Source: Alphaproteobacteria bacterium
Lineage (GTDB): Bacteria > Pseudomonadota > Alphaproteobacteria > UBA2966
Assembly: GCA_030740435.1 (NCBI GenBank)
Contig: JASLXG010000066.1
Location: forward strand, 24,603 to 88,602
Reading direction: 5' to 3'
Length of the DNA: 64,000 nucleotides
This document shows, one piece after another, positions 1 through 43,024 of the stretch; within the stretch, counting starts at the first letter, position 1, and each line of letters starts with the position of its first letter. Both the position numbers and the translations under genes were made by a program. The notes below the pieces were generated by a model, which was given only the letters and a program-made list of their open reading frames with translations, did not search any database and was not told the DNA's origin.

Positions 1-230
1 TGCACAACGGCAACTTCTTCGAACTCAGCGAAGTGGTCGAGTTCTACAACGAAGGCGGTGACCAGAACGAGTTCTCGGCCAACAAGACCAAGTTGCTCAA
101 GCCCCTCAACCTCTCGGACGAGGAGCAGGAGGACCTGGTGGCCTTCCTGGATTCCCTGAGCGGCGACGAAATCAAGATCACGTCGCCCAAGCTGCCGCCC
201 TATGCGCCGCTGCCGGCGTCGACGAATTGA
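1..230 (+). CDS. di-haem cytochrome c peroxidase / MauG-family protein, C-terminal end (5' part outside window)
   Basis: Frame open from the window edge (codons from nt 3) reads HNGNFFELSEVVEFYNEGGDQN...LSDEEQEDLVAFLDSLSG. This is the conserved C-terminal block of bacterial CCP/MauG proteins. Stop TGA at 228-230. Confidence 0.7.
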   Translation, partial: HNGNFFELSEVVEFYNEGGDQNEFSANKTKLLKPLNLSDEEQEDLVAFLDSLSGDEIKITSPKLPPYAPLPASTN

Positions 231-244
231 GCGGGGATGCAATC

Positions 245-835
245 ATGAAAATCGAAACGCAAACTGTGATTTCCGCCCACCAGGCCCACGACATGGTGGC
301 TTCTGGGGCGGTCCACGAAGGCCACGGCAAGTGCCTGATGAGCCGGCGCCAGTTCCTGCTGACCTCGGGTGCCACCAGCGTCGTGATGGTCAGTGCCGGT
401 CCCGGCCTGGCTGCCGCGCCGGCCGTGGTGTCGGGTTATAAGCGCCAGAAGATCGCCAAGCTGAGCCAGCTCAAGACCGACCAGCCGGTCGATTTCAAAT
501 ACCCTGACCAGGGAGCCTTCTCGGAATCGATGGTGGTCAAGTTGGGCACGGAAGCCGGCGGCGGCGTCGGTCCGGGCCGCGACGTGGTGGCCTTCAACTA
601 TGCCTGCACCCATCAGGGCGGGACTTTGAGCGGCACCTACAAGGGCGACACCAAGTCGCTGGGCGCCTGCCCGCTGCACCTTTCGACCTATGACCTGACG
701 CGCCACGGCATTTTGATCTCGGGCCAGGCCTACCAGAGCCTGCCCCAGGTGCTGCTGGAGTTGAAGGGCGACGATGTTTTTGCCGTGGGCGTCTTCGGGC
801 TGATCTTCGGCCGCTACGACAATCTGTTGGGTTAG
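245..835 (+). CDS. TAT-exported Rieske [2Fe-2S] small subunit, arsenite-oxidase/iodate-reductase (AioB/IdrB)-like
   Basis: Twin-arginine signal (MSRRQFLLTSGATSVV...AAAPA). Rieske boxes C-T-H (nt 605-613) and C-P-L-H 18 residues later. Sits directly upstream of the AioA-like large subunit, as in aioBA. Start ATG 245 (GGGGA 7 nt upstream) preferred; ATG 338 is an alternative. Confidence 0.8.
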   Translation: MKIETQTVISAHQAHDMVASGAVHEGHGKCLMSRRQFLLTSGATSVVMVSAGPGLAAAPAVVSGYKRQKIAKLSQLKTDQPVDFKYPDQGAFSESMVVKLGTEAGGGVGPGRDVVAFNYACTHQGGTLSGTYKGDTKSLGACPLHLSTYDLTRHGILISGQAYQSLPQVLLELKGDDVFAVGVFGLIFGRYDNLLG

Positions 836-848
836 GGAGCCAGGAACG

Positions 849-3521
849 ATGACAACACCCTATTACATTCCGGAAACCAACGTTCCGCTGCCGCCCAAGG
901 ACGCGGACGTCATCACCACCGCCTGCGACTACTGCATCGTGGCCTGCGGCTTCAAGGTCTACCGCTGGCCGGTGGCCGGCAACAACAAGGGTGGCCCCAA
1001 GGCCGGCCAGAACGCTTTCGGCGTCGACTTCCCGGTCTCCGCGCTGGGCGAGTGGGTGGCTCCCAACCAGCACAACATCGTGCTGCACAAGAACCAGCCC
1101 CACCACATCGTGATCATCCCCGACAAGGCCACCAAGCACGTCAACACGGATGGTGATTCGAGCCTGCGTGGCGGCTGCATCGCGCAAAAGGTCTACAATC
1201 CCCAGACGCCGACGCGCGACCGTCTGAAATCACCCTTTATGCGCATCTACGGCATCTTGCAGCCGGTGACCTGGGATTTCGCCCTCGACGTGGCGGCCGA
1301 GGTGGGGCGCCATGTCATCGCCAAGCACGGCGACAACGCCTATGGCGTCAAGACGTATTCCTACCAGTACATCGAGAACACCTACGCCATCACCAAGTTC
1401 GCGCTCCGCCACATCCGCACGGCCAACTTCACCTTCCATGATACGCCCTCGGACGTGTCGTCGACACCGGGCTTTCGCGACGCCGGCTTCGACAACTTCG
1501 GGCCGGCCTACGAAGACTGGATGAACGCCGAAACATTGTTCATGTGCGGCACCGATCCCTACGAGACCAAGACCATCCTCTTCACCCAGTGGATCATGAA
1601 GGGCATCCAGAACGGTCAGAAGGCCATCTTCATGCTGCCCCGCCGCACCGCCGGCGTTGCCTATGGCGAGAAGAACGGCGGCCTCTGGCTCGACGTAACC
1701 CCGGGCACCGACCTCCTGGTCATCAACGCCATCGCCCGCACCATCGTCGAGAACGGCTGGGAGGATTCGGAGTGGATCAAGAAGTGGGTCAACAACAAAT
1801 GGGAATCCTCCTCGGGCTTCGGCCAGGGCACGCGCAACACGCCCTGGCAGTGGCGCACCACCTGGGGCAAGTTCCAGACCAAGGGTTTCGCCGACTGGAA
1901 GAAGTGGCTCTTGAGCCGCGATGAGTTCAAGGTCGAAAACGCTTCCGCCGTCTCGGGCGTCGCCGCCAAGAAGATCCTGACCGCCGCCGAGTGGCTGGCC
2001 AAGCCCAAGAACGGCAAGCGGCCCAAGTCCTCGATCATGATCGAGAAGGGCCTTTACTGGTCCAACAACACCGGCAGCACCGAGGCCATCTCGGCGCTCG
2101 GCATTATCGTCGGGGCCGGCGGCCGGCCGGGCCAGGTCATCGGCCGGGCCGGCGGCCATCAGCGTGGCGGCCAGCGTGGCGGCAAATATCCGCGCAACAA
2201 GTCGCCCATGAAGGTGCCGGGCCGGCGCCGTCGGGCCCTGGATACCGATACCTGGACCATGGCCGGCCATACACACATGGCCCACGTCATCGGCACCACC
2301 TGGATCCAGTCCATGTGCGGCTCGCAGCAACTGGCCAAGCGCTTCCACGAACTGACGCTGGCCAACCCGCATCAGGTGCGTTCCTACGACAAGAGGGACA
2401 TCATCGAGAGTCTCAAGAAACGGGCCGATTCGGGCGGCATGGTGGTGATCAACCAGGAAATCTATCTGGTCGATCCCATCGGCAACCGTTATGCCGACAT
2501 CATCTTCCCGGCCGCCACCTGGGGCGAGGACAACTTCATGCGGGCCAACGGCGAACGCCGGCTCAGGCTCTACCAGAAGTTCTACGACGCCCCCGGCGAG
2601 GCCAAACCCGACTGGTGGATCATCGCCAACCTGGCCAAGCGCATGGGCTACGACGGCTTCGATTGGAAGAACTCCAACGACGTCGCCGAAGAGGCCTCGC
2701 GCTTCTCTCGCGGCAGCCGCAAGGACTTTCACATGGTCAAGGTGGCAGCCAAGCGCGAGGGCAAGACGCTGCACCGGAAGATGGCCGAATTCGGCACCAA
2801 CGGCATCCAGGGCCCGGTGTTCATGAACGACGACGGCTCGCTGATGGGCTGGAAGCGCTTGCATGACACCACCGCCAAACTGCCCGGTACGGGTCCGGCC
2901 GGGGCCAACGTCTTCAACAAGAAGTTGACCCACTTCAACAGCCAGACCGGCAAGTGCAACCTGCAGAAATCGCGCTGGTCGCTGTTTTCCGACTACTGGA
3001 ACTGGCTGAAGCCCAAGGGCGAGGAAATGTGGTGCACCTCGGGCCGCACCAACGAACGCTGGCAGTCGGGTTTCGACGACCGGCGCCGGCCCTACATCGT
3101 GCAGCGCTGGCCCGAGAACTATGTCGAGATGAGCCCCGAGGATGCCAAGGCCCGCGGCATCGAATCGGGAGATATGGTGATGGTCTACTCCGACCGGGTG
3201 CCCAGCCTGAAGGAAACCGTGCTCGGTGTCGAAGGCTCGGATTATTCCTTCGCCGGCCAGATGGCCAAGGGCAACGTCGAATTGACCCGGGCGGCGGTGA
3301 CCGGTGTGGCCATGGTGACGCGCCACATCAAGAAGGGCGTCCTCTATATGGACTTCCTGCACCCGGCCCAGCCGGCCAACGCGCTGGAGGGCCGCATCGT
3401 CGATTGGATCAGCGGCAATTATAATTACAAAATGGGCGTCGCCAAGGTGAAGAAGATCGGCGAATCCCCCTACAAGCGTTCCTTCCGCTCGATGTCGTTC
3501 GCGCCGCGCGATATCGTGTGA
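849..3521 (+). CDS. molybdopterin oxidoreductase large subunit, AioA/IdrA-like (3Fe-4S type); substrate unknown
   Basis: 890 aa. N-terminal C26-x2-C29-x3-C33 (TACDYCIVACGFKVYRWP) matches the 3Fe-4S arrangement of arsenite-oxidase-type subunits. Also GRAGGHQRGG block and an AioA-like C-terminal tail (...KKIGESPYKRSFRSMSF). No signal peptide of its own, consistent with hitch-hiking on the TAT Rieske partner. RBS GGGAG 835-839. Confidence 0.8.
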   Translation: MTTPYYIPETNVPLPPKDADVITTACDYCIVACGFKVYRWPVAGNNKGGPKAGQNAFGVDFPVSALGEWVAPNQHNIVLHKNQPHHIVIIPDKATKHVNTDGDSSLRGGCIAQKVYNPQTPTRDRLKSPFMRIYGILQPVTWDFALDVAAEVGRHVIAKHGDNAYGVKTYSYQYIENTYAITKFALRHIRTANFTFHDTPSDVSSTPGFRDAGFDNFGPAYEDWMNAETLFMCGTDPYETKTILFTQWIMKGIQNGQKAIFMLPRRTAGVAYGEKNGGLWLDVTPGTDLLVINAIARTIVENGWEDSEWIKKWVNNKWESSSGFGQGTRNTPWQWRTTWGKFQTKGFADWKKWLLSRDEFKVENASAVSGVAAKKILTAAEWLAKPKNGKRPKSSIMIEKGLYWSNNTGSTEAISALGIIVGAGGRPGQVIGRAGGHQRGGQRGGKYPRNKSPMKVPGRRRRALDTDTWTMAGHTHMAHVIGTTWIQSMCGSQQLAKRFHELTLANPHQVRSYDKRDIIESLKKRADSGGMVVINQEIYLVDPIGNRYADIIFPAATWGEDNFMRANGERRLRLYQKFYDAPGEAKPDWWIIANLAKRMGYDGFDWKNSNDVAEEASRFSRGSRKDFHMVKVAAKREGKTLHRKMAEFGTNGIQGPVFMNDDGSLMGWKRLHDTTAKLPGTGPAGANVFNKKLTHFNSQTGKCNLQKSRWSLFSDYWNWLKPKGEEMWCTSGRTNERWQSGFDDRRRPYIVQRWPENYVEMSPEDAKARGIESGDMVMVYSDRVPSLKETVLGVEGSDYSFAGQMAKGNVELTRAAVTGVAMVTRHIKKGVLYMDFLHPAQPANALEGRIVDWISGNYNYKMGVAKVKKIGESPYKRSFRSMSFAPRDIV

Positions 3522-3607: not shown

Positions 3608-5803
3608 GTGATGAACCAGCATGACCCGCTTGCGCTCCAGCACAATGGAACGGCTGACGTCGTGGCCCTGAAGGCCAACGTCGTGGCCGCCCTGGCCGGC
3701 CTCCTGGGCCAAGGACCCGACGTGGTGCGCTGCGCCGCCGCCCGGGCCCTGGGGGTAATGGGATCCGAGGCTGCCGTCGAGCCACTGGTGGCGGCCTTGC
3801 TGGACGAGGACGAGGACGTGCGCACGGACGCCGCCGGGGCGCTGGCCCGTCTCGGCGCTGCGGCGGCCGACAAGCAGCTTCTGGAAAATTTGCTCGGCGA
3901 TCCCTGCGCCGACGTCAAGGCGGCCGCCATCCGGGCCCTGGCGGGCTCAAGGAATTCCGACGTCGTGCCTTGGCTGCGCCGCCTGGCGGCTGGCCGTGAC
4001 GAGGAGATCGCCTGGGACGAAGAGGCCTTTTTCGACCAGGACTGGGACGATTGGGTGGACTTGCAGGTGGCCGCCATCGAGGCCCTGGCCGAAATGGGCG
4101 GCACCGAGGCGGTGCCCGATATCGTCGCCGCCCTCGATGACGAATACGCCCAGGACATCACCGAGACCGCCTTCAAGGCCCTGGCGCGCCTGGGCGACGA
4201 GGGACTGACTGCGCTCTCGATCTATGCCGAGGGCGGCGACCAGCGCCTGCGCCGGCGCGCCGCGGCGGTCATGGCTACGGCCGGCGGCGAGGTGGCCGAG
4301 GCGGCGGTGGAGCGCGCGCTCGGCGATCCCGAGCCGGCCGTGCGCCTGGCCGTGGCCGAGGTGCTGGCCGCCAAGGCGGCCGCCGATCCCCGGCTCGAGG
4401 CTTTGCTCGGCGATGCCGATCCCGGGCTGCGCGCCATCGCGGCCGTGCGCTGGGGGGAGCACCACCCGGCCGGCCTGAGGCCGCTTTTCGAGGACCGCTC
4501 GGCCGCCGTGCGAACGGCTGCTTTCGCCGCCCTGGCGGCAGCCCCGGCCACTCCCGACGACGAAGGCCTGGCAGATCTCTTGCACCGTAACTTGGCGGCG
4601 ACGCCGGACCAGGTGCCGGCGGCCGCGGCCCAGGCCCTGGCGGCGCACTTCGGACAGGCGGCGCTCGATGACTTGGCGGCGCTGCTGGCGGACCGGTCCC
4701 GTGGACCGGAAGTGCGGCTGGGCGCGTTGCGTGGCCTTGGCCGTCTGGGCCTGGCGGCGGTGCCCGCGCTGAGCGGGCAATTGGCCGATGACGAACGCCA
4801 GATCCGCCTCGAAGCCATGACGGCGCTGGCCGGCGTCGCCAAGGCCGAGAGCTGGCCCAACGCCGCCGGCGAGAGCCTGCTGGCGGCCTTGCGCGGCGAG
4901 ATGGTGGCTGAGCCCGAGCCGGAACCAGAGGCCGAACCCGAGCCGGAACCAGAGCCCGAGCCCGAGCCCGACGAATCAGCCTTCCCGGAATCGACGCTGG
5001 CGGCCATCCTGGGCCCCGAATCGCCGCTGCTGGAAGCCCATGGCGAGGTCCGCGGTGGTGCCGAACTGGGTCCCGATGATTTGGAATTCCTCGGCTTGGC
5101 CCGCGAGGCCCGGCAGGCCGGCGGCAAGAAGCGGGTGCCGCTGGTGCCCGATGTGGCGACCCACCAGGACGTGCCGCGCTTTGCCGCCAACCTGCTCGGC
5201 GATATCGCCCGTGACGAAGTGGCGTTGGCGCTGACGCAAGCTCTGCCGGCCGCCGACCGCGAGTTGCGCATCGAGGCGGCGCGATCGTTGGGCCGCATCG
5301 GTGAGGTGCTGGGCGAGCTGCCCGAGGGGGCATTCGAGGCCCTGGCGGCGCTCAGCCAGGATCGTGAGCGCGATCTCAAGCTGGCCGCCGTGCGCAGCCT
5401 GGGCCTGGCTCCGCTGGCGCTGGCTGAGCCCTTGCTGCGGGCCGGACTCGAGGACGAGGACGGTTTCGTGCGCCGCGAGGCGGTCTCCGCCCTGGCCCGG
5501 CTGGGCCCCGTCGACGGTGCCGTCGACGCCCTTTTGCACGACAACGAGCCCGGCGTGCGCCTGGCCGTGGCGGAGGCGCTTTGCGCCTCGGGCCGCGAGG
5601 ACGCCCTGGCCCTGCTGATGGATTTCGCCTTTGCCTTCGGCGGCGCCCAGCGCCGCGAGGCCGGGCGGCTGCTGCGCCGCCTCGACGCCCCGGCCGCCAA
5701 TGCCCGGCTGTTGCAGGTGCTCGAAGACGAAAGCCGCGAGCCGGTCTGGCAGGTGGCCATCGAGATGCTGGAGGAAATCAATGCTTCCGTGGCGGGTGGA
5801 TAG
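3608..5803 (+). CDS. HEAT-repeat (PBS-lyase HEAT-like) protein, cytoplasmic
   Basis: 731 aa with many repeats of the pattern D(x)xVRxxAAxALGxxG...AvpxLxxxLxD. No signal peptide. GTG 3608 / ATG 3611 start. Confidence 0.75.
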   Translation: MMNQHDPLALQHNGTADVVALKANVVAALAGLLGQGPDVVRCAAARALGVMGSEAAVEPLVAALLDEDEDVRTDAAGALARLGAAAADKQLLENLLGDPCADVKAAAIRALAGSRNSDVVPWLRRLAAGRDEEIAWDEEAFFDQDWDDWVDLQVAAIEALAEMGGTEAVPDIVAALDDEYAQDITETAFKALARLGDEGLTALSIYAEGGDQRLRRRAAAVMATAGGEVAEAAVERALGDPEPAVRLAVAEVLAAKAAADPRLEALLGDADPGLRAIAAVRWGEHHPAGLRPLFEDRSAAVRTAAFAALAAAPATPDDEGLADLLHRNLAATPDQVPAAAAQALAAHFGQAALDDLAALLADRSRGPEVRLGALRGLGRLGLAAVPALSGQLADDERQIRLEAMTALAGVAKAESWPNAAGESLLAALRGEMVAEPEPEPEAEPEPEPEPEPEPDESAFPESTLAAILGPESPLLEAHGEVRGGAELGPDDLEFLGLAREARQAGGKKRVPLVPDVATHQDVPRFAANLLGDIARDEVALALTQALPAADRELRIEAARSLGRIGEVLGELPEGAFEALAALSQDRERDLKLAAVRSLGLAPLALAEPLLRAGLEDEDGFVRREAVSALARLGPVDGAVDALLHDNEPGVRLAVAEALCASGREDALALLMDFAFAFGGAQRREAGRLLRRLDAPAANARLLQVLEDESREPVWQVAIEMLEEINASVAGG
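4910..4972 (+). repeat. in-frame (Glu-Pro)n low-complexity tract inside the HEAT-repeat gene
   Basis: Encodes EPEPEPEAEPEPEPEPEPEPD. The 18-nt unit CCCGAGCCGGAACCAGAG occurs twice (4913-4930 and 4937-4954). Confidence 0.9.
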
Positions 5804-5835: not shown

Positions 5836-6618
5836 ATGACAATGAAAGCGCAGACGAAATTAGGCTCTTTGGCGATTGCCGTGGCGGTCGCGGTGGCCTT
5901 GGCGGCACCCGCCCAGGCGGCTAAGAAGTACAAGGAAATCGACGTCCAGAACGGCGCCACCATCAGCGGGCGTGTGAGCTTCGAAGGCGCGCTCCCGGCC
6001 GACGCGGTGGAGAAGATCCTGATCACCAAGGATCCCAAGATCTGCGGCGAGGGTGAACGCGAAGTGGTCTGGATCGACGTCAAGGACGGCGCGCTGCGCG
6101 GCAGCTTCGTCTTCATCAACAAAATAAAAGAGGGCAAGAAGTGGGGCGCCCCGACCGGCGGCAAGTACATCATCGACCAGAAGGGTTGCCGCTTCAATCC
6201 CTGGGCCCAGGTGGTGCAGCCCGGCCCCATCACCATCCGCCACTCGGACCCGGGGGCGCTGCATAACATCAACACGCGCGAGATCATCGGCGTGGGCAAG
6301 AAGAAGTCGGTCAAGCGCACCATGTTCAACTTCGGCCAGCCCGAGCCCGGCGATATCGAACAGGCGCTGAAGCCCAGGCGCTCAGCCTTCATCGGCATCA
6401 ACTGCGAGGCCCACAACTTCATGTTCGGCTACATGATGGCACCCAAACACCCCTATGCCGTGGTGGTCGCGGACGACGGCTCGTTCAGCCTTGGCGACGT
6501 GCCGCCAGGCAAGTATTCGGTGCGTGCCTGGCATCCCCGGCTCGGCCTCAAGAAGACCAAGATCACGGTGGCGGCCGGAGCCAAGGCGGAAGCCAATTTC
6601 GCTTTCAAGGCCAAGTAG
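5836..6618 (+). CDS. periplasmic cupredoxin-like protein (putative type-1 Cu site) with carboxypeptidase-regulatory-like beta-sandwich ends
   Basis: Sec signal (AVAVALAAPAQA). C190-E-A-H193-N-F-M196 (nt 6403-6423) is an amicyanin-style C-x2-H-x2-M loop, with upstream His candidates at 6241-6243 and 6262-6264. The N-terminal GATISGRVSFEG and C-terminal DGSFSLGDVPPGKYSVRAW resemble CarboxypepD_reg strands. RBS GAGGAGAGG precedes ATG 5836. Confidence 0.55.
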   Translation: MTMKAQTKLGSLAIAVAVAVALAAPAQAAKKYKEIDVQNGATISGRVSFEGALPADAVEKILITKDPKICGEGEREVVWIDVKDGALRGSFVFINKIKEGKKWGAPTGGKYIIDQKGCRFNPWAQVVQPGPITIRHSDPGALHNINTREIIGVGKKKSVKRTMFNFGQPEPGDIEQALKPRRSAFIGINCEAHNFMFGYMMAPKHPYAVVVADDGSFSLGDVPPGKYSVRAWHPRLGLKKTKITVAAGAKAEANFAFKAK

Positions 6619-6649: not shown

Positions 6650-8764
6650 GTGACGAAGGCGGGGCAGGGGCGAAGCAGGCAGGCGCTGCTGGCGCTGGCG
6701 GCGCTGACCCTGGCCGTTCTGGCTGCCTCGCCGGCCTGGGCCCTGGAGGCCAACGAATACCGCCAGGTCCTGGGCCTCGATTCGCGCAAAGTCGTTTGGT
6801 TCCTGGCCCAGATGCACCTTTTCTTCGGCGCCTTCGTGCTCGGCGTGCCGCTGTTCGCCGTGATCATCGAAATCGTCGGCTGGAAGAACGGCGACGAACG
6901 CTTCGACAAGCTGGCCTACGAATTCACCAGCCTGCTCAGCGTCGCCTATGCCACCACGGCGGCACTCGGCGGCATGCTGGCCTTCGCGCTGTTTACGCTT
7001 TACCCGACCTTCATGGGCTTCATGGCCGGAGCCTTCAAGGACGTCTTTTTCGTCTACGCCATCCTGTTTTTTGCCGAGACCTTCTGCCTCTATCTCTACT
7101 ACTACGGCTGGAAGGCGATGCAGGGGCGGGAGCCTTTCGGAAAAACCCTGCAACTGCTCTTCAAGACGGCCGGCGTGGTCATCGCAGGCCTTGGCCTGCT
7201 TTTCCTGTTCGGTCTTATCGGACCCGAGATGCGGGGCGATACCCGGGCCTTCATGGCGCTCTTGTACGTGCTGCCGCTGGGGGCCGGGATATATCTGCTG
7301 AAAGACGGCAAGTCGGGCCACATCCTGATCGGCATCCTGCTCAACCTGGCCGGCACCGGCATCATGCAGGCGGCCAACTCGATGGCCGGCTTCATGATGA
7401 GCCCGGCCGGCGTCAGCGAGGCCGGCGAGATCATCGGCAGCACCTGGCAGGTCTTCGAGAACGTGCTGGCCACGCCGGTGGCTATCCACCGCATGCTGGG
7501 CAATCTCGCCTTCGGCGGCCTGGTGGCGGGATCGTATGCCGCCGTCAAGTTCATCGGCGCCAAAACGGCCGAGGAAAAGGCGCACTACGACTGGATGGGC
7601 TACATCGCCAATTTCGTCGCCATCGCCGCCCTGATCCCGCTGCCCTTCGCCGGCTACTACCTGGGCCGCGAGGTCTATTCGACCTCGGCCGTCATGGGCA
7701 ACAACATGATGGGCGGCGATTTCTCCTGGACCTTCATCATCCAGGCCGTGCTGGTGGGCTCGCTGTTCTTGATCTCGAACTATTACCTCTGGTCCGGCAT
7801 GACCCGCATCCCGGGGTCCGAGCGCTATTACAAGTTCATCAAGTTCATCCTCTTTGCCCTGATCGTCTCCTTCGCCATCTGGCTGACGCCGCACAACCTG
7901 CCGCTGACGGGCTCGGAGGTGGGCGATATGGGCGGCAGCCAATACCACCCGACGCTCAAGTTCCTGGGCCTGATGCCGGCCAAGAACGCGGTGGTCAACC
8001 TGATCATCATCTCGACCTTCGTCAGCTTTCTTTTGTATCGCCGCGGCAACAAGGCCGATGCCGTGTCGATCCGGGCCCAGGGGCGGACGCCGATGATCGT
8101 CATCGGCCTGGCCGGCGCGGCGGCGCTCTTGATCGTTGGCCAATTCGCCTGGTCGCTGATGACCATGAGCCCGGCCGAGCTCGACCTGCCGGCCGACACG
8201 GCGCAGTACTTCCGCACCGTCGGTTGGCTCTTGATCGGCGAATGCGCCATGGTGGTGGTGGCCGTCGGCCTGGCGCTCACGGACCGCGGCAAGTGGGCCC
8301 AGGCGCTCTATCTCGCCTACACCGTCTTCAGCGTCGTGCTGTTCCTCGGCGTCTACGGCTTCGTGGTCATGGAGAAGGCCTCGCCCTTCCTGCGCGACGT
8401 TGCCGTGGCCCAGTTCCTGCAGCTCATCAGTGCCCTCATTCTGGTCTCCGCCATCGACCTATTCCTGTTCAAGGGCGCTCAGGAGATCGGCCCCCTGCAG
8501 TGGGGCAAGATGACCAACCGCAGCCAGTACGCGCTGCTGGCGCTGACCTTCGTCATCACCATGAACATGGGCCTGATGGGCTTCATCCGCTCAGGTTTGC
8601 GCGGCGACTGGCACATCTTCGGGGTCATGCGCGACACCTCGGAATGGTCCTACACGCCGACCAACGCCACCATGACCGAGATGGTCAGCCTGGCCGTGCT
8701 GGTCTTCATGGTGGGCGTCGCCTTCATGTTCTGGCTGGGCAGCATCGCTGCCAAGAAGGACTAG
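6650..8764 (+). CDS. CydA-like (cytochrome bd subunit I-like) polytopic membrane protein, module 1; no cydB partner
   Basis: 704 aa from GTG 6650 (RBS GGAGAGGA 6640-6647), with about 16-18 hydrophobic segments. Blocks alignable to E. coli CydA: AQMHLFFGAFVLGVPLF (His19 region), AILFFAETFCLYLYYYGW (FLESTFVGLFFFGW region), AIHRMLGNLAFGG (His186 region). Confidence 0.65.
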   Translation: MTKAGQGRSRQALLALAALTLAVLAASPAWALEANEYRQVLGLDSRKVVWFLAQMHLFFGAFVLGVPLFAVIIEIVGWKNGDERFDKLAYEFTSLLSVAYATTAALGGMLAFALFTLYPTFMGFMAGAFKDVFFVYAILFFAETFCLYLYYYGWKAMQGREPFGKTLQLLFKTAGVVIAGLGLLFLFGLIGPEMRGDTRAFMALLYVLPLGAGIYLLKDGKSGHILIGILLNLAGTGIMQAANSMAGFMMSPAGVSEAGEIIGSTWQVFENVLATPVAIHRMLGNLAFGGLVAGSYAAVKFIGAKTAEEKAHYDWMGYIANFVAIAALIPLPFAGYYLGREVYSTSAVMGNNMMGGDFSWTFIIQAVLVGSLFLISNYYLWSGMTRIPGSERYYKFIKFILFALIVSFAIWLTPHNLPLTGSEVGDMGGSQYHPTLKFLGLMPAKNAVVNLIIISTFVSFLLYRRGNKADAVSIRAQGRTPMIVIGLAGAAALLIVGQFAWSLMTMSPAELDLPADTAQYFRTVGWLLIGECAMVVVAVGLALTDRGKWAQALYLAYTVFSVVLFLGVYGFVVMEKASPFLRDVAVAQFLQLISALILVSAIDLFLFKGAQEIGPLQWGKMTNRSQYALLALTFVITMNMGLMGFIRSGLRGDWHIFGVMRDTSEWSYTPTNATMTEMVSLAVLVFMVGVAFMFWLGSIAAKKD

Positions 8765-8768
8765 CCGC

Positions 8769-9746
8769 ATGACCGCCACCATGGCCAGGGTTGCGCTGTT
8801 CATGTTTCTGCTGCTGGGCCTTTTCCTGTGGGTCGGCAGCACCATCACGGCCATGACCGGCGGCGACAAGCGGCCCAAGGGCGGCGCCGTCGAGGTCAGC
8901 CCCGAGGGCGGCGAGGCCATCTTCTGGGGCAAGGGGCGCTGCTTCACCTGCCACAGCCTGGGCGGCCAAGGGAGCGCCGTGCGCTGCCCCAACCTGGGCC
9001 AATTCGGCGACAAGTTCGCGCTGCCCATCGGCGCCCGAGCGGCGGAGCGGGCCAAGGAACGCAGCGCCAAGACCGGCCAGACCTACACGACCACCGATTA
9101 CCTGGTGGAAAGCCTGGCCGAGCCTGGGGCCTACGTCGTCGAGGGCTACAAGAACGAGATGGCCATCGTCTACGCGCCGCCGATCTCGCTCAATCTTACC
9201 GAGATCAAGGCCGTGATCGCCTACTTGCAGAGCCAGGGCGGCGACGTCGACATGGAGGCGCTGAACAAGCCAAGCCCGATCAGCCAGAAGTTCTTCGCCC
9301 GCATCAATGCGGCCTCGGCCGCCGGTGGTGGCGATCCCGGTGCCGGCGAGGTGGTCTTCGAGGACAACTGCGCCGAATGCCATGACCTCGGTGGTGAAGA
9401 CGAGGAGCTGCCGGGTCCGGCGCTTTCGGGCGTCGGCAAGAAGGGCCTCAAGTTCCTGGCCGATGCCATCCTCAGGCCGGCCAAGGAGATCACCAAGGGT
9501 TTCGAGACGTATCAAGCGGTGATGAAGGACGGCCGCAAGCACGTTGGCCTGAAAAGCCGTGACGAGGGCGGCGAGGTCGACATCACCAAGGCCAACGGCG
9601 ACGTCGAGACGCTGGCCAAGGCCGAGATCAAGGAGCTCAAGGAAGACAAGGGCAAATCGATCATGCCCGAAGACCTGATCGAGGCCCTGACGGTCAAGGA
9701 CTATCAGGACGTCCTCTCGTTCCTGCTGTTGCAAAAGGGCGAGTAA
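8769..9746 (+). CDS. membrane-anchored di-haem cytochrome c, module 1
   Basis: N-terminal TM helix. CFTCH and CAECH motifs. The C-terminal half resembles the Planctomycete/Verrucomicrobia-type haem-binding domain (...SIMPEDLIEALTVKDYQDVLSFL). Confidence 0.8.
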   Translation: MTATMARVALFMFLLLGLFLWVGSTITAMTGGDKRPKGGAVEVSPEGGEAIFWGKGRCFTCHSLGGQGSAVRCPNLGQFGDKFALPIGARAAERAKERSAKTGQTYTTTDYLVESLAEPGAYVVEGYKNEMAIVYAPPISLNLTEIKAVIAYLQSQGGDVDMEALNKPSPISQKFFARINAASAAGGGDPGAGEVVFEDNCAECHDLGGEDEELPGPALSGVGKKGLKFLADAILRPAKEITKGFETYQAVMKDGRKHVGLKSRDEGGEVDITKANGDVETLAKAEIKELKEDKGKSIMPEDLIEALTVKDYQDVLSFLLLQKGE

Positions 9747-9752
9747 GGCACC

Positions 9753-10718
9753 ATGGCAAAGCTCAGAATCAGTCGCTTCTGGTGGGTCGTGATCACCATT
9801 GTGGCGGTCTATGCCTTCGTCAAATGGGGCATTCCGGCGCTCTCGCGGGAAATCACGGCGCTGCCCTTCCCGCTTTCGGTGCCGGGCACCTTGATGTTCA
9901 TCTACATCGTGCTGACGCTGGTGGCGCTGTTTCTCTTCATCACCTTTTCGGACGACTACCTGGAAGAATTCAGCCGCCCCATCAAGCGTCTGCTGCGCGG
10001 CGAATTCGGCGCCATCCCGCGCCTCGTGGTGCTGCTGGCGGTGCCGTTGATCGTCGGCTGGCAGGTTTACGACGTGACCGTGCCCAAGGTCGAGCTGCCC
10101 TCGACGCTGCGCATCCAGCACCCCTCGTCGAACTTCCCCAAGAAGTTCGAGAGCATGAACAATCCCTTCGCCAATCCCGATGAAGCCACGGTCGCGGCCT
10201 TCATCGAGCAGGCCAAGGACGAGGAGATCGAGTTCATCGCCCAAGTCCAGGGCGACATCGAGGCCTGGCGCGAAGAGATCGATCCAGACAACCCCTACGA
10301 TTTCATCCCCACCAAGCCCTGGCGTGCCTTTCTCGCCCAGCTCGAAGAGGGCGAGGTCGAGCCGGCCGTGGCCAAGGCGGCGCTGGTGGAGAAGAACCTC
10401 TTCGAGGGGCGCGCCCTATATGCCATGAACTGCCGGCCCTGCCACGGCGACAGCGTCGCCGGCGACGGCCCGCTGGCCGACGGCTTCAAGCTCAGGCCGA
10501 TCAACTTCACCGACAACGGCACCATCGAGACCATCGTCGAGGGCTACACCTTCTGGCGCGTGAGCAACGGCGGCCCCGGCCTGCCCACCGAGGCCACACC
10601 CTGGGATTCGGCCATGCCCGAGTGGAAGGTCAGCCTGACCGAGGCCGAGCGCTGGAAGATCATCCTGGCCGAATACGACCTGGCCCAGAAGACGCCGCGC
10701 ATCCCGGAGAGCCATTGA
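9753..10718 (+). CDS. 3-TM membrane-anchored mono-haem cytochrome c, module 1
   Basis: Three N-terminal hydrophobic helices. One CRPCH motif followed by FWRVSNGGPGLPTEATPWDSAMP. Its stop overlaps the next start (TGATG, 10716-10720). Confidence 0.8.
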   Translation: MAKLRISRFWWVVITIVAVYAFVKWGIPALSREITALPFPLSVPGTLMFIYIVLTLVALFLFITFSDDYLEEFSRPIKRLLRGEFGAIPRLVVLLAVPLIVGWQVYDVTVPKVELPSTLRIQHPSSNFPKKFESMNNPFANPDEATVAAFIEQAKDEEIEFIAQVQGDIEAWREEIDPDNPYDFIPTKPWRAFLAQLEEGEVEPAVAKAALVEKNLFEGRALYAMNCRPCHGDSVAGDGPLADGFKLRPINFTDNGTIETIVEGYTFWRVSNGGPGLPTEATPWDSAMPEWKVSLTEAERWKIILAEYDLAQKTPRIPESH

Positions 10719-12337
10719 TGGTTTCGCGCATCACCATGGCGCTGGGCTTGGGCCTTCTCGCTTTCGCGGTCTCGCCGGCCGAGGCCGCCGACGTCTCGCA
10801 GGATCCCCAGCCCGAGTTCACGGACGAGCTGCGGGCTGAAGGCCGGCAGATCTACTTCCAGCGCTGCAGCTTCTGCCACGGCCTGCTGGGCGACGGCGAG
10901 GGACCGGCGGCGCCCTTCATGGACCCCCGGCCGCGCGACTTCACGCTGGGCACCTTCAAGTTCCGCACCACCCAGTCGGGCGAGCTGCCGCAAGATTCAG
11001 ACATCTTCCGCACCGTCAGCCGCGGCCTCAGCGGCACCGCCATGCAGGCCTTCGACGACGAGCGCATCAAGAACGGCCTCAGCGAGCACCAGCGCTGGGC
11101 CGTGATCGCCTACATCCAGACCTTCGCCCAGGAGTTCGACGATGAGGAACTGGACCCGGTCAAGACCGGCAAGGTGGTGGCGCTGCCCAAGGACCGCCCG
11201 GCCTATGGCGCCGAAATCGTGGCCAAAGGCAAAGAAATCTTTCTCAAGGCCAAGTGCTGGGAATGCCACGGCAAGTCGGGCCGCGGCGACGGCCAAAAAT
11301 CCTTCGACCGCAAGGACGACTGGGGCTTTCCCATCCGCATCCGCAACGTCACCCATCCCTGGAAGATCAAGGCCGGCGACCGCGTCGAGGACATCTACAT
11401 GCGTTTCTCGACCGGCATCAGCGGCACGCCCATGCCGTCTTTCGTCAAGGCCCTGAGCGAGAGCGAACGCTGGCAGCTGGCCAACTTCATCAAGTCTTTG
11501 CAGATCCAGCGCACCAGCCACCAGGTGCTGAAGGCGCTGCGCCTGGAGGGCGAGCTGCCCGAGAGCCCGGATGATCCGCGCTGGAAGCAAGCCGAGCCCA
11601 TGGACGTGATTCTTACCGGGCAGGCCGTGGCGCCGCCGCGCTGGCAAAGCCCGTCGGTCGAGATGGTGACGCTGAGGGCCGTCTTCAATGACAACGAAAT
11701 CGCTTTCCGGCTGACTTGGGACGACCCCTTCAAGGACACCAAGCACGACGCCGGGCAGGAACTCGACGTCAAGGAGATCAGCGCCAGCGGCATCTACAGT
11801 TCATACGTCGACGTCAACGAGTTGGCGGTGCGCAAGCTGGAGACCTATCGCGACGCCGTGGCGCTGCAGTTTCCCGTGAAGCCCACCGAGGGCACCAGGC
11901 GGCCGCACTTCCTGCGCGGCTCGGCCTCGGATCCGGTGCATCTCTGGCTTTGGAAAGCCGATGAGGGCGCTGTCGAGGAAGCCGTCGGCCGGGGTTGGCG
12001 CCAAGGCCTGAGGCCGCAGCCCGAGGAGCAGCAGCAGGTCGCCGCCAAGGCCGCCTGGGACCAGGGGCGCTGGCAACTGGTGATGAAACGGCCCTTGCGC
12101 ACCGAGGACAAGAACGACGTCCAGTTCGAGGCCGGCCGCTTCATTCCGCTGTCGCTCAATGCCTGGGACGGCTCCAACGGCGAACACGGTTTGATCATGA
12201 GCCTCTCTAGTTGGTATTACGTCTTCCTCGAAGCGCCGACGCCGATCAGCGTTTACCTCTATACCATCCTGGCGATCTTGATCACGGGCGGTCTGGGTTT
12301 CTGGTTGATGAGAAAAGCTGAAGCGGAAGACGCCTAG
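10718..12337 (+). CDS. di-haem cytochrome c fused to EB_dh-like (ethylbenzene-dehydrogenase gamma/NxrC-like haem-b) domain with C-terminal TM anchor, module 1
   Basis: Signal peptide. CSFCH and CWECH in CcoP-like repeats (PRDFTLG, GTAMQAF / GTPMPSF). Then about 250 aa of beta-rich domain (VTLRAVFNDNEIAFRLTWDD...FIPLSLNAWDGSNGEHG). C-terminal helix VYLYTILAILITGGLGFWL. Confidence 0.65.
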   Translation: MVSRITMALGLGLLAFAVSPAEAADVSQDPQPEFTDELRAEGRQIYFQRCSFCHGLLGDGEGPAAPFMDPRPRDFTLGTFKFRTTQSGELPQDSDIFRTVSRGLSGTAMQAFDDERIKNGLSEHQRWAVIAYIQTFAQEFDDEELDPVKTGKVVALPKDRPAYGAEIVAKGKEIFLKAKCWECHGKSGRGDGQKSFDRKDDWGFPIRIRNVTHPWKIKAGDRVEDIYMRFSTGISGTPMPSFVKALSESERWQLANFIKSLQIQRTSHQVLKALRLEGELPESPDDPRWKQAEPMDVILTGQAVAPPRWQSPSVEMVTLRAVFNDNEIAFRLTWDDPFKDTKHDAGQELDVKEISASGIYSSYVDVNELAVRKLETYRDAVALQFPVKPTEGTRRPHFLRGSASDPVHLWLWKADEGAVEEAVGRGWRQGLRPQPEEQQQVAAKAAWDQGRWQLVMKRPLRTEDKNDVQFEAGRFIPLSLNAWDGSNGEHGLIMSLSSWYYVFLEAPTPISVYLYTILAILITGGLGFWLMRKAEAEDA

Positions 12338-12391: not shown

Positions 12392-13054
12392 ATGAGAATA
12401 ATTTTTGCCTCATCTTTGGCGCTGGCGCTGAGCCTGGCCGCAAGTGGTCCGGCCCGGGCTGATGCGGCGGCCGGCAAGGCCGCCTTCGCGGCCCAGAAAT
12501 GCGAGGGCTGCCATTACACCGAAGGGCCGGCCAGGGAGAAGTCGATCGACGATCAGTTGGCCAAGAAGGGGCCTGAGCTGTGGTACGCCGGTTCCAAGTT
12601 CCAGGCGCCCTGGCTCGAGGCCTGGCTGCAAAAACCCGATGCCATCCGGCCGCTGAAGTACAACACGCTCGAACAAGAGAACCCCGGCGACCATCCCAAG
12701 CTTTCGGGCGGCGATGCCAAGAACGTCGCCGCTTTCCTCATGAGCCTGACCTCGGACGCTGTCAAGGCGGGCAAGGTCAAGGCCAAGAGGAACGCCAAGG
12801 GGCGCCTGATTTTCTCCAAGAAAATGCCCTGTTCCGGTTGCCACTCCTCCATCGGCCGCAAGAAGAAAGTCGGCGGCGGGCGTTCCGGCCCGACCCTGGT
12901 CGGGGCCGGCCAGCGCCTCAACCCGGACTGGATCCTGGCCTATCTCAAGACGCCCGACGTCTTCAAGCCGATCAAGGCCATGCCCGTGTTCGCCGGTATC
13001 CTGGGCGACAAGGACATGCTCAACCTGGCCCGCCACGTGGCCAGCTTCAAGTAG
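12392..13054 (+). CDS. periplasmic di-haem cytochrome c
   Basis: Signal peptide (ALALSLAASGPARA). CEGCH and CSGCH motifs. RBS GGGAGAG. Confidence 0.8.
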   Translation: MRIIFASSLALALSLAASGPARADAAAGKAAFAAQKCEGCHYTEGPAREKSIDDQLAKKGPELWYAGSKFQAPWLEAWLQKPDAIRPLKYNTLEQENPGDHPKLSGGDAKNVAAFLMSLTSDAVKAGKVKAKRNAKGRLIFSKKMPCSGCHSSIGRKKKVGGGRSGPTLVGAGQRLNPDWILAYLKTPDVFKPIKAMPVFAGILGDKDMLNLARHVASFK

Positions 13055-13074: not shown

Positions 13075-13443
13075 ATGAAAAGATTGACCACCGCCGCTGC
13101 CTTCTGCACCCTGGCGTTTGCCCTGGCCGTTCCTTCGGCCCAGGCCGCCGATGCCAAGAAGGTCTACAACTTCTATTGCGCCCAGTGCCACGGCACCGCC
13201 GGCAAAGGCAAGGGACCCAACGTCACCAAGGACTTTCCCGTCAGCCCGCGCGACTTCACCAATGCCGCCGAGATGGACAAGCTCTCGGACGCCGACATGA
13301 AGAACGTGATTCTGGATGGCGGTCCGGCGGCCTCCAAGTCGCCCATGATGCCGCCCTGGTCCAAGACCCTGAAGGGCGACGAGGTTGACGCTCTGGTCGG
13401 CTACCTGCGCAAGTTCTGCGGCTGCAAGGGCAAGCAAGGCTAG
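13075..13443 (+). CDS. periplasmic mono-haem cytochrome c (class I)
   Basis: Signal peptide (FALAVPSAQA). CAQCH, with distal Met candidates in SPMMPPW. RBS GGGAGGA 13061-13067. Confidence 0.8.
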   Translation: MKRLTTAAAFCTLAFALAVPSAQAADAKKVYNFYCAQCHGTAGKGKGPNVTKDFPVSPRDFTNAAEMDKLSDADMKNVILDGGPAASKSPMMPPWSKTLKGDEVDALVGYLRKFCGCKGKQG

Positions 13444-13723: not shown

Positions 13724-13846
13724 ATGACGATGACTGAAAACAACGGTGCAACAGGCAGTGGATCAGCCAACGCCTGGGCCGGTCCGGCCCTCTTTACGGT
13801 CGTTGCCGTGGTCATGCTGGTCTTCTTCTATTGGTTCCTGTCCTAG
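13724..13846 (+). CDS. candidate 40-aa single-TM micro-protein upstream of CydA-like gene 2
   Basis: Translates to MTMTENNGATGSGSANAWAGPALFTVVAVVMLVFFYWFLS*. One clear hydrophobic helix. Weak RBS. Not in the supplied track because it is under 60 aa. Confidence 0.3.
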   Translation: MTMTENNGATGSGSANAWAGPALFTVVAVVMLVFFYWFLS

Positions 13847-13897
13847 AGTCAAGGCAGCCTGCAGGGGGGCACAAATGAATAATCCGAGGGATTGCTC

Positions 13898-14014
13898 ATG
13901 AAGGACTACGTGGTGCCCTTTGTGGCGGCGTTCGTGGTGTGGGGTCTCCTCTTTCTCGGTCTCGACGTGGTGATCATGAACGCCCAGGGACTGAACCTGA
14001 TCTATCAGCCGTAG
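13898..14014 (+). CDS. candidate 38-aa single-TM micro-protein immediately upstream of CydA-like gene 2
   Basis: Translates to MKDYVVPFVAAFVVWGLLFLGLDVVIMNAQGLNLIYQP*. GAGGG lies 8 nt upstream of the ATG. The stop is 9 nt before the GTG of the CydA-like gene. Confidence 0.4.
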   Translation: MKDYVVPFVAAFVVWGLLFLGLDVVIMNAQGLNLIYQP

Positions 14015-19260: not shown

Positions 19261-19270
19261 GAGAGTGTCC

Positions 19271-20944: not shown

Positions 20945-20957
20945 GCATGGGAGGCTC

Positions 20958-36705: not shown

Positions 36706-36714
36706 GATCCGCCC

Positions 36715-41042: not shown

Positions 41043-41076
41043 GGCCGTCATTTTCGTGGCGAATTCGGAGGTAACG

Positions 41077-42132
<1,056 letters not shown>

Positions 42133-42151
42133 GCGGGTGGGGGGCAGCGCC

Positions 42152-43018: not shown

Positions 43019-43024
43019 GTAGCC

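Follow-up and report, generated by a model that had tools for sequence, protein, structure and literature searches.

The two large membrane proteins M1 and M2 encoded in the window (the whole 64-kb stretch of alphaproteobacterial DNA that was analysed) are very probably the haem-b membrane subunits of two paralogous respiratory complexes of the OR-N2 type, a family that is already published and is also described as the "bd-like oxidase" of Nitrospira, Nitrospina and anammox bacteria. The case for this family is based on fold, residue conservation, gene content and synteny. As to function, the analysis leans slightly towards a terminal (O2) reductase fed by cytochrome c over a quinol:cytochrome c anchor.

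Both open reading frames stood as first delimited, and from end to end their products are identical to P0001 and P0271 in the database. A preliminary description made from the sequence alone had aligned them with E. coli CydA, which is borne out by PF01654 matches of 40.2 bits for M1 (E 2e-10) and 53.3 bits for M2 (E 2.3e-14), both above the gathering score of 26.2. Structure prediction was performed with alignments built from two subfamilies only; the resulting AlphaFold model of M2 (pLDDT 72, pTM 0.71) returned CydA as all ten of its top Foldseek matches and thus resembles solved CydA in three dimensions. The models contain 14 helices in M2 and 18 in M1, in agreement with the extra N-terminal helix and the larger helix number of M1 noticed before; the N-terminal helix, included in both counts, looks like an export signal or anchor (AWA/LE in M1, ALA/AE in M2). 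The helices that carry His259 and Met420 are separated by three modelled helices, where E. coli has a single helix and the Q-loop, so that the reported lack of a long Q-loop is confirmed, with helices standing in its place both here and in the published account of the family. No CydA model of NCBIfam matched M1 or M2, no solved structure closer than the CydA chains was found by PDB sequence search, and literature searches yielded neither characterisation nor structure of a bd-like complex, which together with the operon content agrees with the earlier placement in a bd-like, biochemically unsolved lineage beside c-type cytochromes. In comparison with canonical CydABX (E. coli bd-I, Geobacillus bd), M1 and M2 keep the equivalents of His19, His186 and Glu107 but are without CydB, Glu99 and Glu445; two helices replace the Q-loop, the partners are c-type cytochromes, and the helices exceed the canonical number by five in M2 and by nine in M1.

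All four motif blocks were found again in the two proteins, namely AQMHLFF/AQLHLWF, FFAE(T/S)xCLYxYYYGW, HRMxxNxAxGG and RSG(L/I)R(G/Q)(D/H)WH. In HMMER alignment M2 His93 corresponds to Geobacillus CydA His21 and E. coli His19, M2 Glu180 corresponds to Geobacillus Glu108 and E. coli Glu107, and His259 of the HRM motif is matched by a His in each of the two solved CydA chains and is taken to be the His186 equivalent; these three assignments therefore stand as first made. The treatment of Glu99 does not. Under the six-residue spacing common to all non-qOR1 families, this position is an invariant Tyr (M2 Tyr173) and not Val or Trp, and in E. coli-type structures the axial ligand of haem d is His19 and not Glu99. 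Since His19 is retained in M1 and M2, the phrase "without the haem-d ligand" is misleading. The GRQPW motif, described as replaced, is in manual motif register degenerate and not lost, with Arg and Trp remaining (IRQHW/LRGDW). In the same kind of register the Glu445 position is occupied by Ser (M2 Ser554), which agrees with the S/A given in the published OR-N2 table.

The OR-N2 signature, which in M2 comprises His93, Tyr173, Glu180, Tyr185/Tyr187, His203, His259, Met420-x3-Asn424, Ser554 and Trp560, is complete in both proteins at the offsets of the published reference sequence. Its positions are invariant or nearly so among 82 sequences, including the two His residues and the candidate Met ligand, and among representatives down to about 30% identity His203 is kept in 34 of 35, His93 in 32 of 34 and Glu180 in 26 of 34. 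Met420, at the Met393 position, is the candidate second ligand of a b558-type haem; further conserved histidines are His394, His411 and His561, while a check of the inserted helices of M1 for further haem ligands showed a Met (Met194) and a Cys (Cys532) but no His that is conserved. According to Murali, Gennis & Hemp 2021 (bioRxiv 10.1101/2021.01.16.426971), OR-N2 shares with M2 about 14 helices and with both proteins the kept His19, Glu107, His126 and His186, the changes of Glu99 to Tyr and of Glu445 to Ser, the YxY after Glu107, the M-x3-N at the Met393 position, and an operon in which several cytochromes c accompany an EbdC (EB_dh) homologue. M1 differs by its 18 helices, the two mini-genes 5' of M2 are not mentioned in the consulted parts of that paper and its supplement, and the present setting is proteobacterial and Idr-linked, the assignment here being made by signature residues, helices and operon. 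Two other families were considered and rejected: OR-N1, for M1, which like M2 retains Glu107 (Gly in OR-N1) and is neighboured by cytochromes c and EB_dh instead of petA/petB/petD; and OR-C (8 helices, internal CxxCH), for both proteins, as neither contains CxxCH and the helices number 14 and 18.

Table 1. Genes of the two bd-like modules and of their surroundings (positions within the window).
Feature	Position	Strand	Basis
idrP2-like di-haem cytochrome c peroxidase, 3' end, cut by window start	3..230	+	frame 3, 64-70% identical to C-terminus of second CCP_MauG gene in L074, L060
Rieske subunit, AioB/IdrB-like	245..835	+	PF00355; TIGR02694 115 bits (cut-off 95.65)
Molybdopterin subunit, AioA/IdrA-like, 3Fe-4S "Rieske_3" N-terminal domain	849..3521	+	PF18465, PF00384, PF01568; TIGR02693 401 bits (cut-off 359)
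HEAT-repeat protein	3608..5803	+	HEAT_2 182 bits
Exported protein, candidate cupredoxin-like ligand set, C-terminal beta-sandwich	5842..6618	+	weak CarboxypepD_reg, fn3_3 matches
M1, CydA-like (OR-N2-type) subunit	6650..8764	+	704 aa, 18 predicted helices
M1 cA, membrane-anchored dihaem cytochrome c	8769..9746	+	two CxxCH, cytochrome c Pfam, N-terminal hydrophobic helix
M1 cB, monohaem cytochrome c, ~3 N-terminal helices	9753..10718	+	one CxxCH, Pfam, hydrophobic segments
M1 cC, dihaem cytochrome c + EB_dh (haem b) + C-terminal helix, "alternative NxrC"-type	10718..12337	+	EB_dh 85 bits, two cytochrome c domains, TIGR03477-like, two CxxCH
cytX, exported dihaem cytochrome c	12392..13054	+	Pfam, two CxxCH; between the two modules in relatives too
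cytY, exported monohaem cytochrome c	13075..13443	+	Pfam, one CxxCH; position conserved
sA, conserved 40-aa single-helix mini-protein	13724..13846	+	consensus waGPalF..vl.a.lvFFwWfL
sB, conserved 40-aa single-helix mini-protein	13892..14014	+	consensus F..Al.v....F..LD..iM..QGLsL
M2, CydA-like (OR-N2-type) subunit	14024..15880	+	618 aa, 14 predicted helices; PF01654 53.3 bits
M2 cA, membrane-anchored dihaem cytochrome c	15884..16702	+	Pfam, helix, CxxCH motifs
M2 cB, monohaem cytochrome c, N-terminal helices	16716..17483	+	Pfam, helices, CxxCH motif
M2 cC, dihaem cytochrome c + EB_dh + C-terminal helix	17480..19024	+	EB_dh 81 bits, TIGR03477-like, two CxxCH
Protein with two Usp and two PCP_red domains	19268..20944	+	Pfam; beside modules in ~30 loci, several phyla
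Radical SAM/SPASM protein, AhbD/NirJ (haem-modifying) kind, C-terminal PCP_red	20958..22250	+	Pfam; syntenic in ~25 loci
HemY-like protoporphyrinogen/coproporphyrinogen oxidase family flavoprotein, start codon uncertain	22165..23637	+	PF01593; TIGR00562 220 bits (cut-off 97.85); syntenic in many loci

Each module follows one gene order: the bd-like subunit, a dihaem cytochrome c, a monohaem cytochrome c, and a dihaem cytochrome c with EB_dh and a terminal helix. The absence of cydB was verified by a survey of multi-helix reading frames, which throughout the 64 kb are limited to M1, M2, the bc1 cytochrome b and two MFS transporters, and among the called genes and homology matches of more than 80 related loci no CydB was found either, the same cytochrome c partners being present instead. 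The parallel statement on cydX must be tempered: two conserved 40-aa single-helix reading frames, sA and sB, lie directly upstream of M2, with the sB stop 9 nt before it. In most loci, those of Nitrospirae and Nitrospinota among them, homologues of sA and sB are placed directly 5' of the M2-type gene; a Pfam search with both matched no family, so by sequence they are not CydX, CydS or FixQ. Rfam and tRNA scans gave no matches.

The same gene content and order are known from the module of Nitrospira, Nitrospina and Kuenenia (bd-like_3/4, two cytochromes c and alternative NxrC; kustd1709-1712) and from Manganitrophus TO_1, and a tandem pair of modules like the one seen here is reported in Nitrospira too. 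M2 is 61-65% identical to its Nitrospirae and Nitrospinae orthologues, and the module order of the window is kept in six loci of these groups (L036-L041) at 59-65% identity. Orthologues at 60-80% identity were found in lineages named for known lithotrophs with high-potential donors (Gallionella, Mariprofundaceae, Nitrospinae, Nitrospirae, Acidiferrobacteraceae and Magnetococcales), and close relatives also in Thermodesulfobacteriota MAGs. In Proteobacteria the module is abundant; a single scan matched more than 588 species-level genomes, and thousands of metagenome proteins match in addition. While the module of Nitrospira, Nitrospina and anammox bacteria is NXR-associated, no NxrAB-type genes occur in the window, and an AioAB/IdrAB-type molybdoenzyme with two peroxidases adjoins the modules instead. 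Because the module is here away from nitrite oxidoreductase, the EB_dh subunit probably belongs to the module itself and is not an NXR-specific gamma subunit. The module is likewise distinct from alternative complex III (ActABCDEF), since its membrane subunit is CydA-like with haem ligands and not NrfD-like, and no ActB-type Fe-S/Mo-like subunit is present.

Downstream of M2 the AhbD/NirJ-like radical SAM gene and the HemY-like gene recur beside the modules of relatives; the radical SAM protein scored 293 bits with TIGR04545 and 289 bits with TIGR04055, both under their cut-offs. A gene with Usp domains stands by the module here, and a UspA gene is found within the NXR cluster of Kuenenia.

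Upstream, both modules are co-directional with the idrP-idrB-idrA-HEAT genes and directly 3' of them. On the same contig extended upstream (L081) two full CCP_MauG genes are followed by the Rieske gene call, and every relative examined has two cytochrome c peroxidase genes and a Rieske gene ahead of the Mo subunit. This peroxidase-Rieske-AioA-like synteny is the published criterion for calling IdrA, and the two di-haem peroxidases, Rieske and AioA-like Mo subunit are those of the iodate reduction island idrABP1P2 (Yamazaki 2020; Reyes-Umana 2021, PMC8692401). The neighbouring cluster thus appears iodate-reductase-like by gene content; its Mo subunit is distant from solved arsenite oxidases (270 bits over 890 aa). 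The published island has no dedicated membrane complex (PMC8692401), whereas bd-like modules adjoin it here, as they do in many marine Alpha- and Gammaproteobacteria: the 18-helix M1 type lies 3' of the Idr-like cluster in all four long contigs examined, and a single-module type lies directly 5' of CCP-CCP-Rieske-Mo in at least 16 loci. The HEAT gene is not considered a part of the module, as it stays 3' of the Mo subunit even at loci that lack a bd-like module (Roseibium album, Rhodovibrionaceae A322). A third module 5' of the window, as in L060 and L074, was also sought, but the extended contig has a sensor kinase and a sigma-54 regulator there. In the cupredoxin-like protein His144, Cys191, His194 and Met197 (C-x2-H-x2-M) are at least 90% conserved among 26 homologues and may be type-1 copper ligands; a PDB sequence search with this protein gave no useful match.

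In the scheme that we infer for cofactor occupancy, direction of electron flow and substrate, the complex would consist of the CydA-fold protein without CydB, the membrane-anchored dihaem c, the three-helix monohaem c and the dihaem-c/EB_dh subunit, with the two 40-aa single-helix peptides added in the M2 complex. Exported carriers (cytX, cytY and the cupredoxin-like protein) would exchange electrons with the EB_dh haem and the five c haems; the electrons would then move to a b558-type haem near the periplasmic face (His259, with Met420 as candidate second ligand), and last to a haem on the His19 equivalent, His93. It is tentatively proposed that this last haem is a proton-consuming site of terminal reduction, most likely of O2, with electrons taken from periplasmic cytochrome c and protons from the cytoplasm via Glu107/His126; because the protons are drawn from the cytoplasm by this path, the reaction would add to the proton motive force. 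As the modules and the IdrP1P2BA-like set share one co-directional cluster, the arrangement suggests one low-oxygen respiratory island.

The proposed reductase role is favoured by the kept His19 equivalent and proton-channel residues Glu107 and His126, and the former conclusion that the proteins are probably not oxygen reductases, drawn in part from the wrong ligand assignment, is for this reason not supported. The published quinol-binding elements are missing from the OR-N2-type family; the module ranks near the top in expression during aerobic growth of Nitrospira and Manganitrophus and is treated as a terminal oxidase by other authors; and Sco1/SenC chaperone genes recur beside it in about 12-16 loci and PCuAC genes in at least three. 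Against it stand reports of the same module in anammox bacteria, which are strict anaerobes, and the close relatives in Thermodesulfobacteriota MAGs. In addition, Glu99 and Glu445, which are conserved in the reference sequences of the O2-reducing qOR1, qOR2 and qOR4a subfamilies, are changed to Tyr and Ser, so that any O2 chemistry here would have to differ from canonical bd. The loss of these two residues and the anammox occurrence are counted in favour of the main competitor, a conceivable and only slightly less favoured arrangement in which quinol or quinone would be bound by the CydA-like subunit and the complex would work as a quinol:cytochrome c oxidoreductase analogous to bc1 or alternative complex III, feeding the Idr-like reductase and the two peroxidases. 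The quinone-anchor idea is already published for the module of Nitrospina, Nitrospira and anammox bacteria and was also the preliminary view; it gains some contextual support from the Idr-like neighbourhood, which fits a quinol dehydrogenase better than an oxidase, since periplasmic reductases need electrons and the published Idr island "lacked a quinone oxidoreductase" (PMC8692401), and from the recurrent placement of M1-type and single modules at that cluster. In CydB a quinone sits in the pocket that in CydA holds haems, and hence the pocket with Ser for Glu445 could have turned into a quinone site. However, the Q-loop and every known quinol-binding residue are missing and no alternative site was identified, the genome already encodes a bc1 complex, and the cytoplasm-side proton path is conserved. 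The Idr-like cluster does not require the module, because Roseibium and Rhodovibrionaceae carry it with no module nearby. Moreover, in iron, nitrite and manganese oxidisers only reverse transfer would be useful, with no obvious coupling to the proton motive force, and by charge-balance reasoning such transfer would be beyond a non-pumping cytochrome c:quinone reductase in lineages with high-potential donors.

If the same haem site reduced an oxidant other than respiratory O2, such as H2O2, NO, or the iodate-reduction by-product HIO or O2 released from it, the co-occurrence with iodate-reductase-like genes and peroxidases would be explained; H2O2, HIO and possibly O2 figure as intermediates in published models of iodate respiration, and the active-site residues have diverged from canonical bd. 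This is nevertheless improbable, as 60-80% identical orthologues of iron- and nitrite-oxidiser lineages have no Idr genes in the fetched flanks. A redox-passive scaffold, with a non-catalytic CydA-like protein (cf. CydA' or "b" paralogues) that only anchors the cytochrome c and EB_dh subunits for periplasmic docking, has precedents in bd paralogues without catalytic residues (qOR4b and OR-N "b" types) and in the term "anchor point" used for the EB_dh subunit. Yet His19, His186, the candidate Met393 and the channel residues vary neither between the paralogues nor from phylum to phylum, and identity between phyla is 60-80%; this is unexpected for a passive protein and makes the scaffold slightly less probable still. 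Finally, the product name "cytochrome ubiquinol oxidase subunit I", given to both proteins by NCBI and JGI, and the PF01654 match would agree with subunits I of an ordinary ubiquinol oxidase having CydB elsewhere in the genome, which is very unlikely indeed in view of the lack of Q-loop, Glu99 and Glu445, the 14 or 18 helices, the silence of NCBIfam CydA models, and the cytochrome c partners that take the place of CydB in the window and the related loci. The cytochrome-c-fed terminal reductase thus remains slightly preferred.

The Idr-like setting, the 18-helix paralogue M1 and the recurrent haem-related genes form a context that was not found in the literature searched, in which no paper tying IdrA to bd-like proteins was met. 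A bolder extension, rather doubtful as a whole, would regard OR-N2 modules as the missing membrane partner of marine iodate reduction, with M1 dedicated to Idr, either as the quinol dehydrogenase absent from the published island or as a reductase of oxidant by-products, with a special or modified haem supplied by the AhbD/NirJ-like radical SAM, HemY-like and PCP_red proteins, and with the two mini-subunits in place of CydX-type peptides.

Thousands of database entries carry the misleading label "cytochrome ubiquinol oxidase subunit I". In nitrite and manganese oxidisers the genes of the bd-like/OR-N complexes belong to the most strongly expressed respiratory genes, and the reaction they catalyse has been a standing question since 2010. 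The present data indicate that the module is wider than the nitrite oxidisers, being abundant in Proteobacteria and not tied to nitrite oxidoreductase. The two mini-subunits and the co-conserved haem-related genes sharpen the co-expression set for biochemistry and cryo-EM, and the repeated linkage to an iodate-reductase-type cluster points to proteobacterial lineages that may include hosts more tractable than Nitrospira.

The two CydA-like genes of the window, M1 and M2 (see the table), lie in high-GC bacterial DNA (62-74% GC) and encode proteins identical over their full length to the database proteins P0001 and P0271, respectively. The assignment of both to the CydA family in the preliminary description proved right: in Pfam the cytochrome bd subunit I family PF01654 (gathering score 26.2) was matched with 40.2 bits by M1 and 53.3 bits by M2, and both matched by sequence the solved CydA chains of Geobacillus (5doq_A) and Mycobacterium (9r2g_A). 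According to these matches and to the AlphaFold models, which were based on 82-sequence alignments and reached pLDDT 80 and pTM 0.78 for M1 and pLDDT 72 and pTM 0.71 for M2, the homology to CydA is real and well above chance. M1 and M2 share 41-47% identity and differ by two insertions of two helices apiece in M1, the models predicting 18 helices for M1 and 14 for M2. In the M2 model two helices take the position of the Q-loop, between the His259 and Met420 helices, and two further helices precede the Ser554 helix. The single N-terminal helix of M2 resembles an export signal or anchor, and judged by sequence the extra N-terminal helix of either protein may be a cleaved signal peptide, absent from the mature form. 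The CxxCH motif is absent from M1 and M2 themselves.

Features of the window and of related loci discussed in the text
Feature	Position (strand)	Description
idrP-like peroxidase, Rieske, AioA-like Mo subunit	3-3521 (+); 7114-12673 in L081, the contig extended upstream	iodate-reductase-island synteny
Exported protein, putative copper carrier	5842-6618 (+)	
M1	6650-8764 (+)	CydA-like, 704 aa
M1 N-terminal extra helix	6650-6760 (+)	ends in AxA-like motif, AWA|LE
Exported cytochromes c between the modules	12392-13054, 13075-13443	
sA	13724-13846 (+)	one hydrophobic helix, 40 aa
sB	13892-14014 (+)	one hydrophobic helix, 40 aa
M2	14024-15880 (+)	CydA-like, 618 aa
M2 N-terminal extra helix	14024-14160 (+)	ends in AxA-like motif, ALA|AE
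Recurrent trio	19268-23637 (+)	Usp/PCP_red protein; AhbD/NirJ-like radical SAM with PCP_red domain; HemY-like oxidase
bc1 operon	34682-37266 (-)	Rieske, cytochrome b (35452-36705, -), cytochrome c1
MoxR AAA+ ATPase, DUF58, BatA/DUF4159	41041-45796 (+)	in a row
Sulfite-oxidase-family molybdoenzyme domain (PF00174)	63126-63998 (+)	cut by window end
Fused cytochrome c, Motiliproteus locus L058	12682-15108	monohaem and dihaem/EB_dh parts, 808 aa
Examples of Sco1/SenC and PCuAC loci	15214-16431 in L058; 17060-17701 in L087	

Where the HMMER alignment with Geobacillus CydA is ungapped, His93, Tyr173 and Glu180 of M2 correspond to Geobacillus His21, Glu101 and Glu108 (E. coli His19, Glu99 and Glu107), while His259 aligns with a histidine of the Geobacillus protein and is assigned to E. 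coli His186. By the offsets in Supplementary Table 6 of Murali et al., His203 is equivalent to E. coli His126, Met420 (in Met420-x3-Asn424) to Met393, and Ser554 to Glu445. These residues, including both histidines pointed out initially and the candidate methionine, are invariant or near-invariant among the 82 M1/M2-type sequences, and most are still kept in representatives at about 30% identity. The Glu99 position, first described as Val or Trp, is Tyr in this alignment, and the statement that the haem-d ligand had been lost with it was mistaken, since a conserved histidine, retained here, serves as axial ligand of haem d in structures of the E. coli type, and Glu99 lies farther off. The GRQPW motif is altered, as had been described, but it is degenerate rather than simply replaced; Arg557 and Trp560 of M2, conserved like the residues above, look like its remnants in a register read by eye from the motif.

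Pfam searches of essentially all plausible ORFs and a six-frame hydrophobicity scan agreed with the earlier statement that no cydB lies within the window: only five multi-helix ORFs were found (M1, M2, the bc1 cytochrome b and two MFS transporters), and thus no cydB is encoded there. The bc1 operon is complete, and therefore the organism already possesses a conventional quinol:cytochrome c oxidoreductase. The claimed absence of cydX holds insofar as no Pfam family was matched by the mini-ORFs sA and sB, but these two 40-codon ORFs, contained in the 580-nt "gap" upstream of M2, resemble CydX/CydS-type peptides in size and position and probably encode small CydX analogues that have escaped annotation. 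In 73 of the 88 sequences examined, from at least five phyla, one or both have homologues immediately before the M2-type gene; the carriers include Nitrospirae, Nitrospinota, Thermodesulfobacteriota, and Alpha- to Zetaproteobacteria, and the conserved motifs are waGPalF...FFwWfL and LD..iM..QGLsL. M1 is not accompanied by mini-ORF genes, because it begins just 31 nt from the preceding gene, and has four extra helices in their place.

Downstream of each CydA-like gene come three cytochrome c genes, spaced by -4 to 13 nt, in accordance with the operons proposed at the outset. The first encodes a membrane-anchored dihaem cytochrome c, the second a monohaem cytochrome c that has about three helices, and the third a dihaem cytochrome c with an EB_dh domain and a C-terminal helix, EB_dh being the ethylbenzene dehydrogenase gamma-type haem b domain. 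The fusion of the second and third products in Motiliproteus supports their being parts of one complex.

Similar modules have been published. In Murali, Gennis and Hemp (2021) the OR-N2 subfamily is defined as a 14-helix CydA relative without quinol site, with Tyr at Glu99, Glu107 retained and Ser or Ala at Glu445, whose operons also contain several cytochromes c and an EbdC homologue; M2 shares the 14 helices, the Tyr, the Glu107 and the Ser. In the study of Lücker et al. (2013) a 14-helix protein of the same kind was found in Nitrospina, Nitrospira, and Kuenenia, its N-terminal part aligning to CydA with haem-b ligands retained, helices in place of the Q-loop and quinol residues absent, and it was suggested that it might work as an alternative complex III-like unit in reverse electron transport. 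In Nitrospira, Mundinger et al. (2019) described a very highly expressed cluster of four genes (bd-like_3, two membrane cytochromes c and an alternative NxrC), duplicated a few genes downstream, and Yu et al. (2021) regarded the same composition as a terminal oxidase and named it TO_1. The Nitrospirae/Nitrospinae orthologues have 59-65% identity to M2 and share its gene order, so both the initial observation and the proposed quinone role are already in the literature. Literature searches and a PDB sequence search revealed no biochemical or structural characterisation of the bd-like family.

The start of the window cuts a di-haem cytochrome c peroxidase gene, and the extended contig shows the order sensor kinase, sigma-54 response regulator (both just upstream of the window), two peroxidases, Rieske, AioA-like Mo subunit, HEAT, cupredoxin-like gene, and M1 module. 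The peroxidase-peroxidase-Rieske-Mo synteny is the criterion for iodate reductase IdrABP1P2 in Reyes-Umana et al. (PMC8692401); the Mo subunit is a distant relative of solved arsenite oxidases and only barely passed the AioA equivalog model. All four long M1-type contigs examined have this Idr-like arrangement. A further module type, the third, occurs singly and has 57-61% identity to M2; in at least 16 loci, belonging to Sedimenticola, Thiodiazotropha, Chromatiales, Thiotrichales, Hyphomicrobiales, and one Nitrospinota, it immediately precedes the peroxidase-peroxidase-Rieske-Mo genes. This association is facultative: in Roseibium album and in a Rhodovibrionaceae isolate Idr-like genes and HEAT occur without the module nearby, and at loci of Gallionella, Mariprofundaceae, and Magnetococcales there are M2-type modules with no Idr genes in the fetched flanks.

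The exported protein listed before M1 gave no Pfam cupredoxin and no PDB sequence match, and its residues His144...Cys191-x2-His194-x2-Met197, kept in 26 homologues and resembling a type-1 copper site, suggest a blue-copper carrier; cupredoxin-like genes are present also in nitrite-oxidiser clusters (Lücker et al. 2013). The recurrent trio, found next to the module in about 25-30 loci of several phyla, may be a system dedicated to supplying or modifying haem. In relatives a Sco1/SenC copper chaperone gene adjoins bd-like modules in about 12-16 loci and PCuAC in at least three; both are absent from the window. The MoxR-to-BatA row resembles aerotolerance (Bat) operons and is unrelated to M1 and M2.

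The fold, the conserved ligand-type residues, the set of subunits and the synteny are shown by the data; on the inferred path, electrons would start at the exported cytochromes c or the cupredoxin, pass the EB_dh haem and the five c haems, continue to a b558-type haem on His259/Met420 at the periplasmic face, and finally reach the haem on His93, where two chemistries are possible. A proton-consuming terminal reduction of O2 at this site is put forward tentatively, at somewhat below even probability; it is slightly favoured over a quinol anchor because His19, Glu107, and His126 are conserved family-wide, known quinol-binding elements are missing (Lücker et al. 2013), orthologues occur in lineages named after iron, nitrite, and manganese oxidisers, and the module ranks with the most strongly expressed genes of aerobic Nitrospira (Mundinger et al. 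2019) and Manganitrophus (Yu et al. 2021). These orthologues are 60-80% identical and should have a common function, and by charge-balance reasoning a cytochrome c:quinone reductase that does not pump would be unable to work uphill in such organisms.

The serious rival, only slightly less probable than O2 reduction, is the original model of M1 and M2 as quinol:cytochrome c anchors that are probably not oxygen reductases. It is favoured by the loss of Glu99 and Glu445 in both proteins, by the report of the module from anaerobic anammox bacteria, by the quinone filling the haem-equivalent pocket of CydB, and by co-encoding here with periplasmic reductases, the published Idr island having no dedicated quinol dehydrogenase. 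Minor alternatives are that another oxidant is reduced at the same site, that the proteins act as a passive scaffold, and that they belong to a canonical oxidase whose CydB is encoded outside the window.

In summary, the preliminary description was essentially right in its observation and in the family and erred in one ligand statement. The M1 and M2 modules are proteobacterial members of a known, biochemically uncharacterised kind, to which the linkage with Idr, the paralogue of 18 helices, and the pair of mini-subunits are possibly useful additions.
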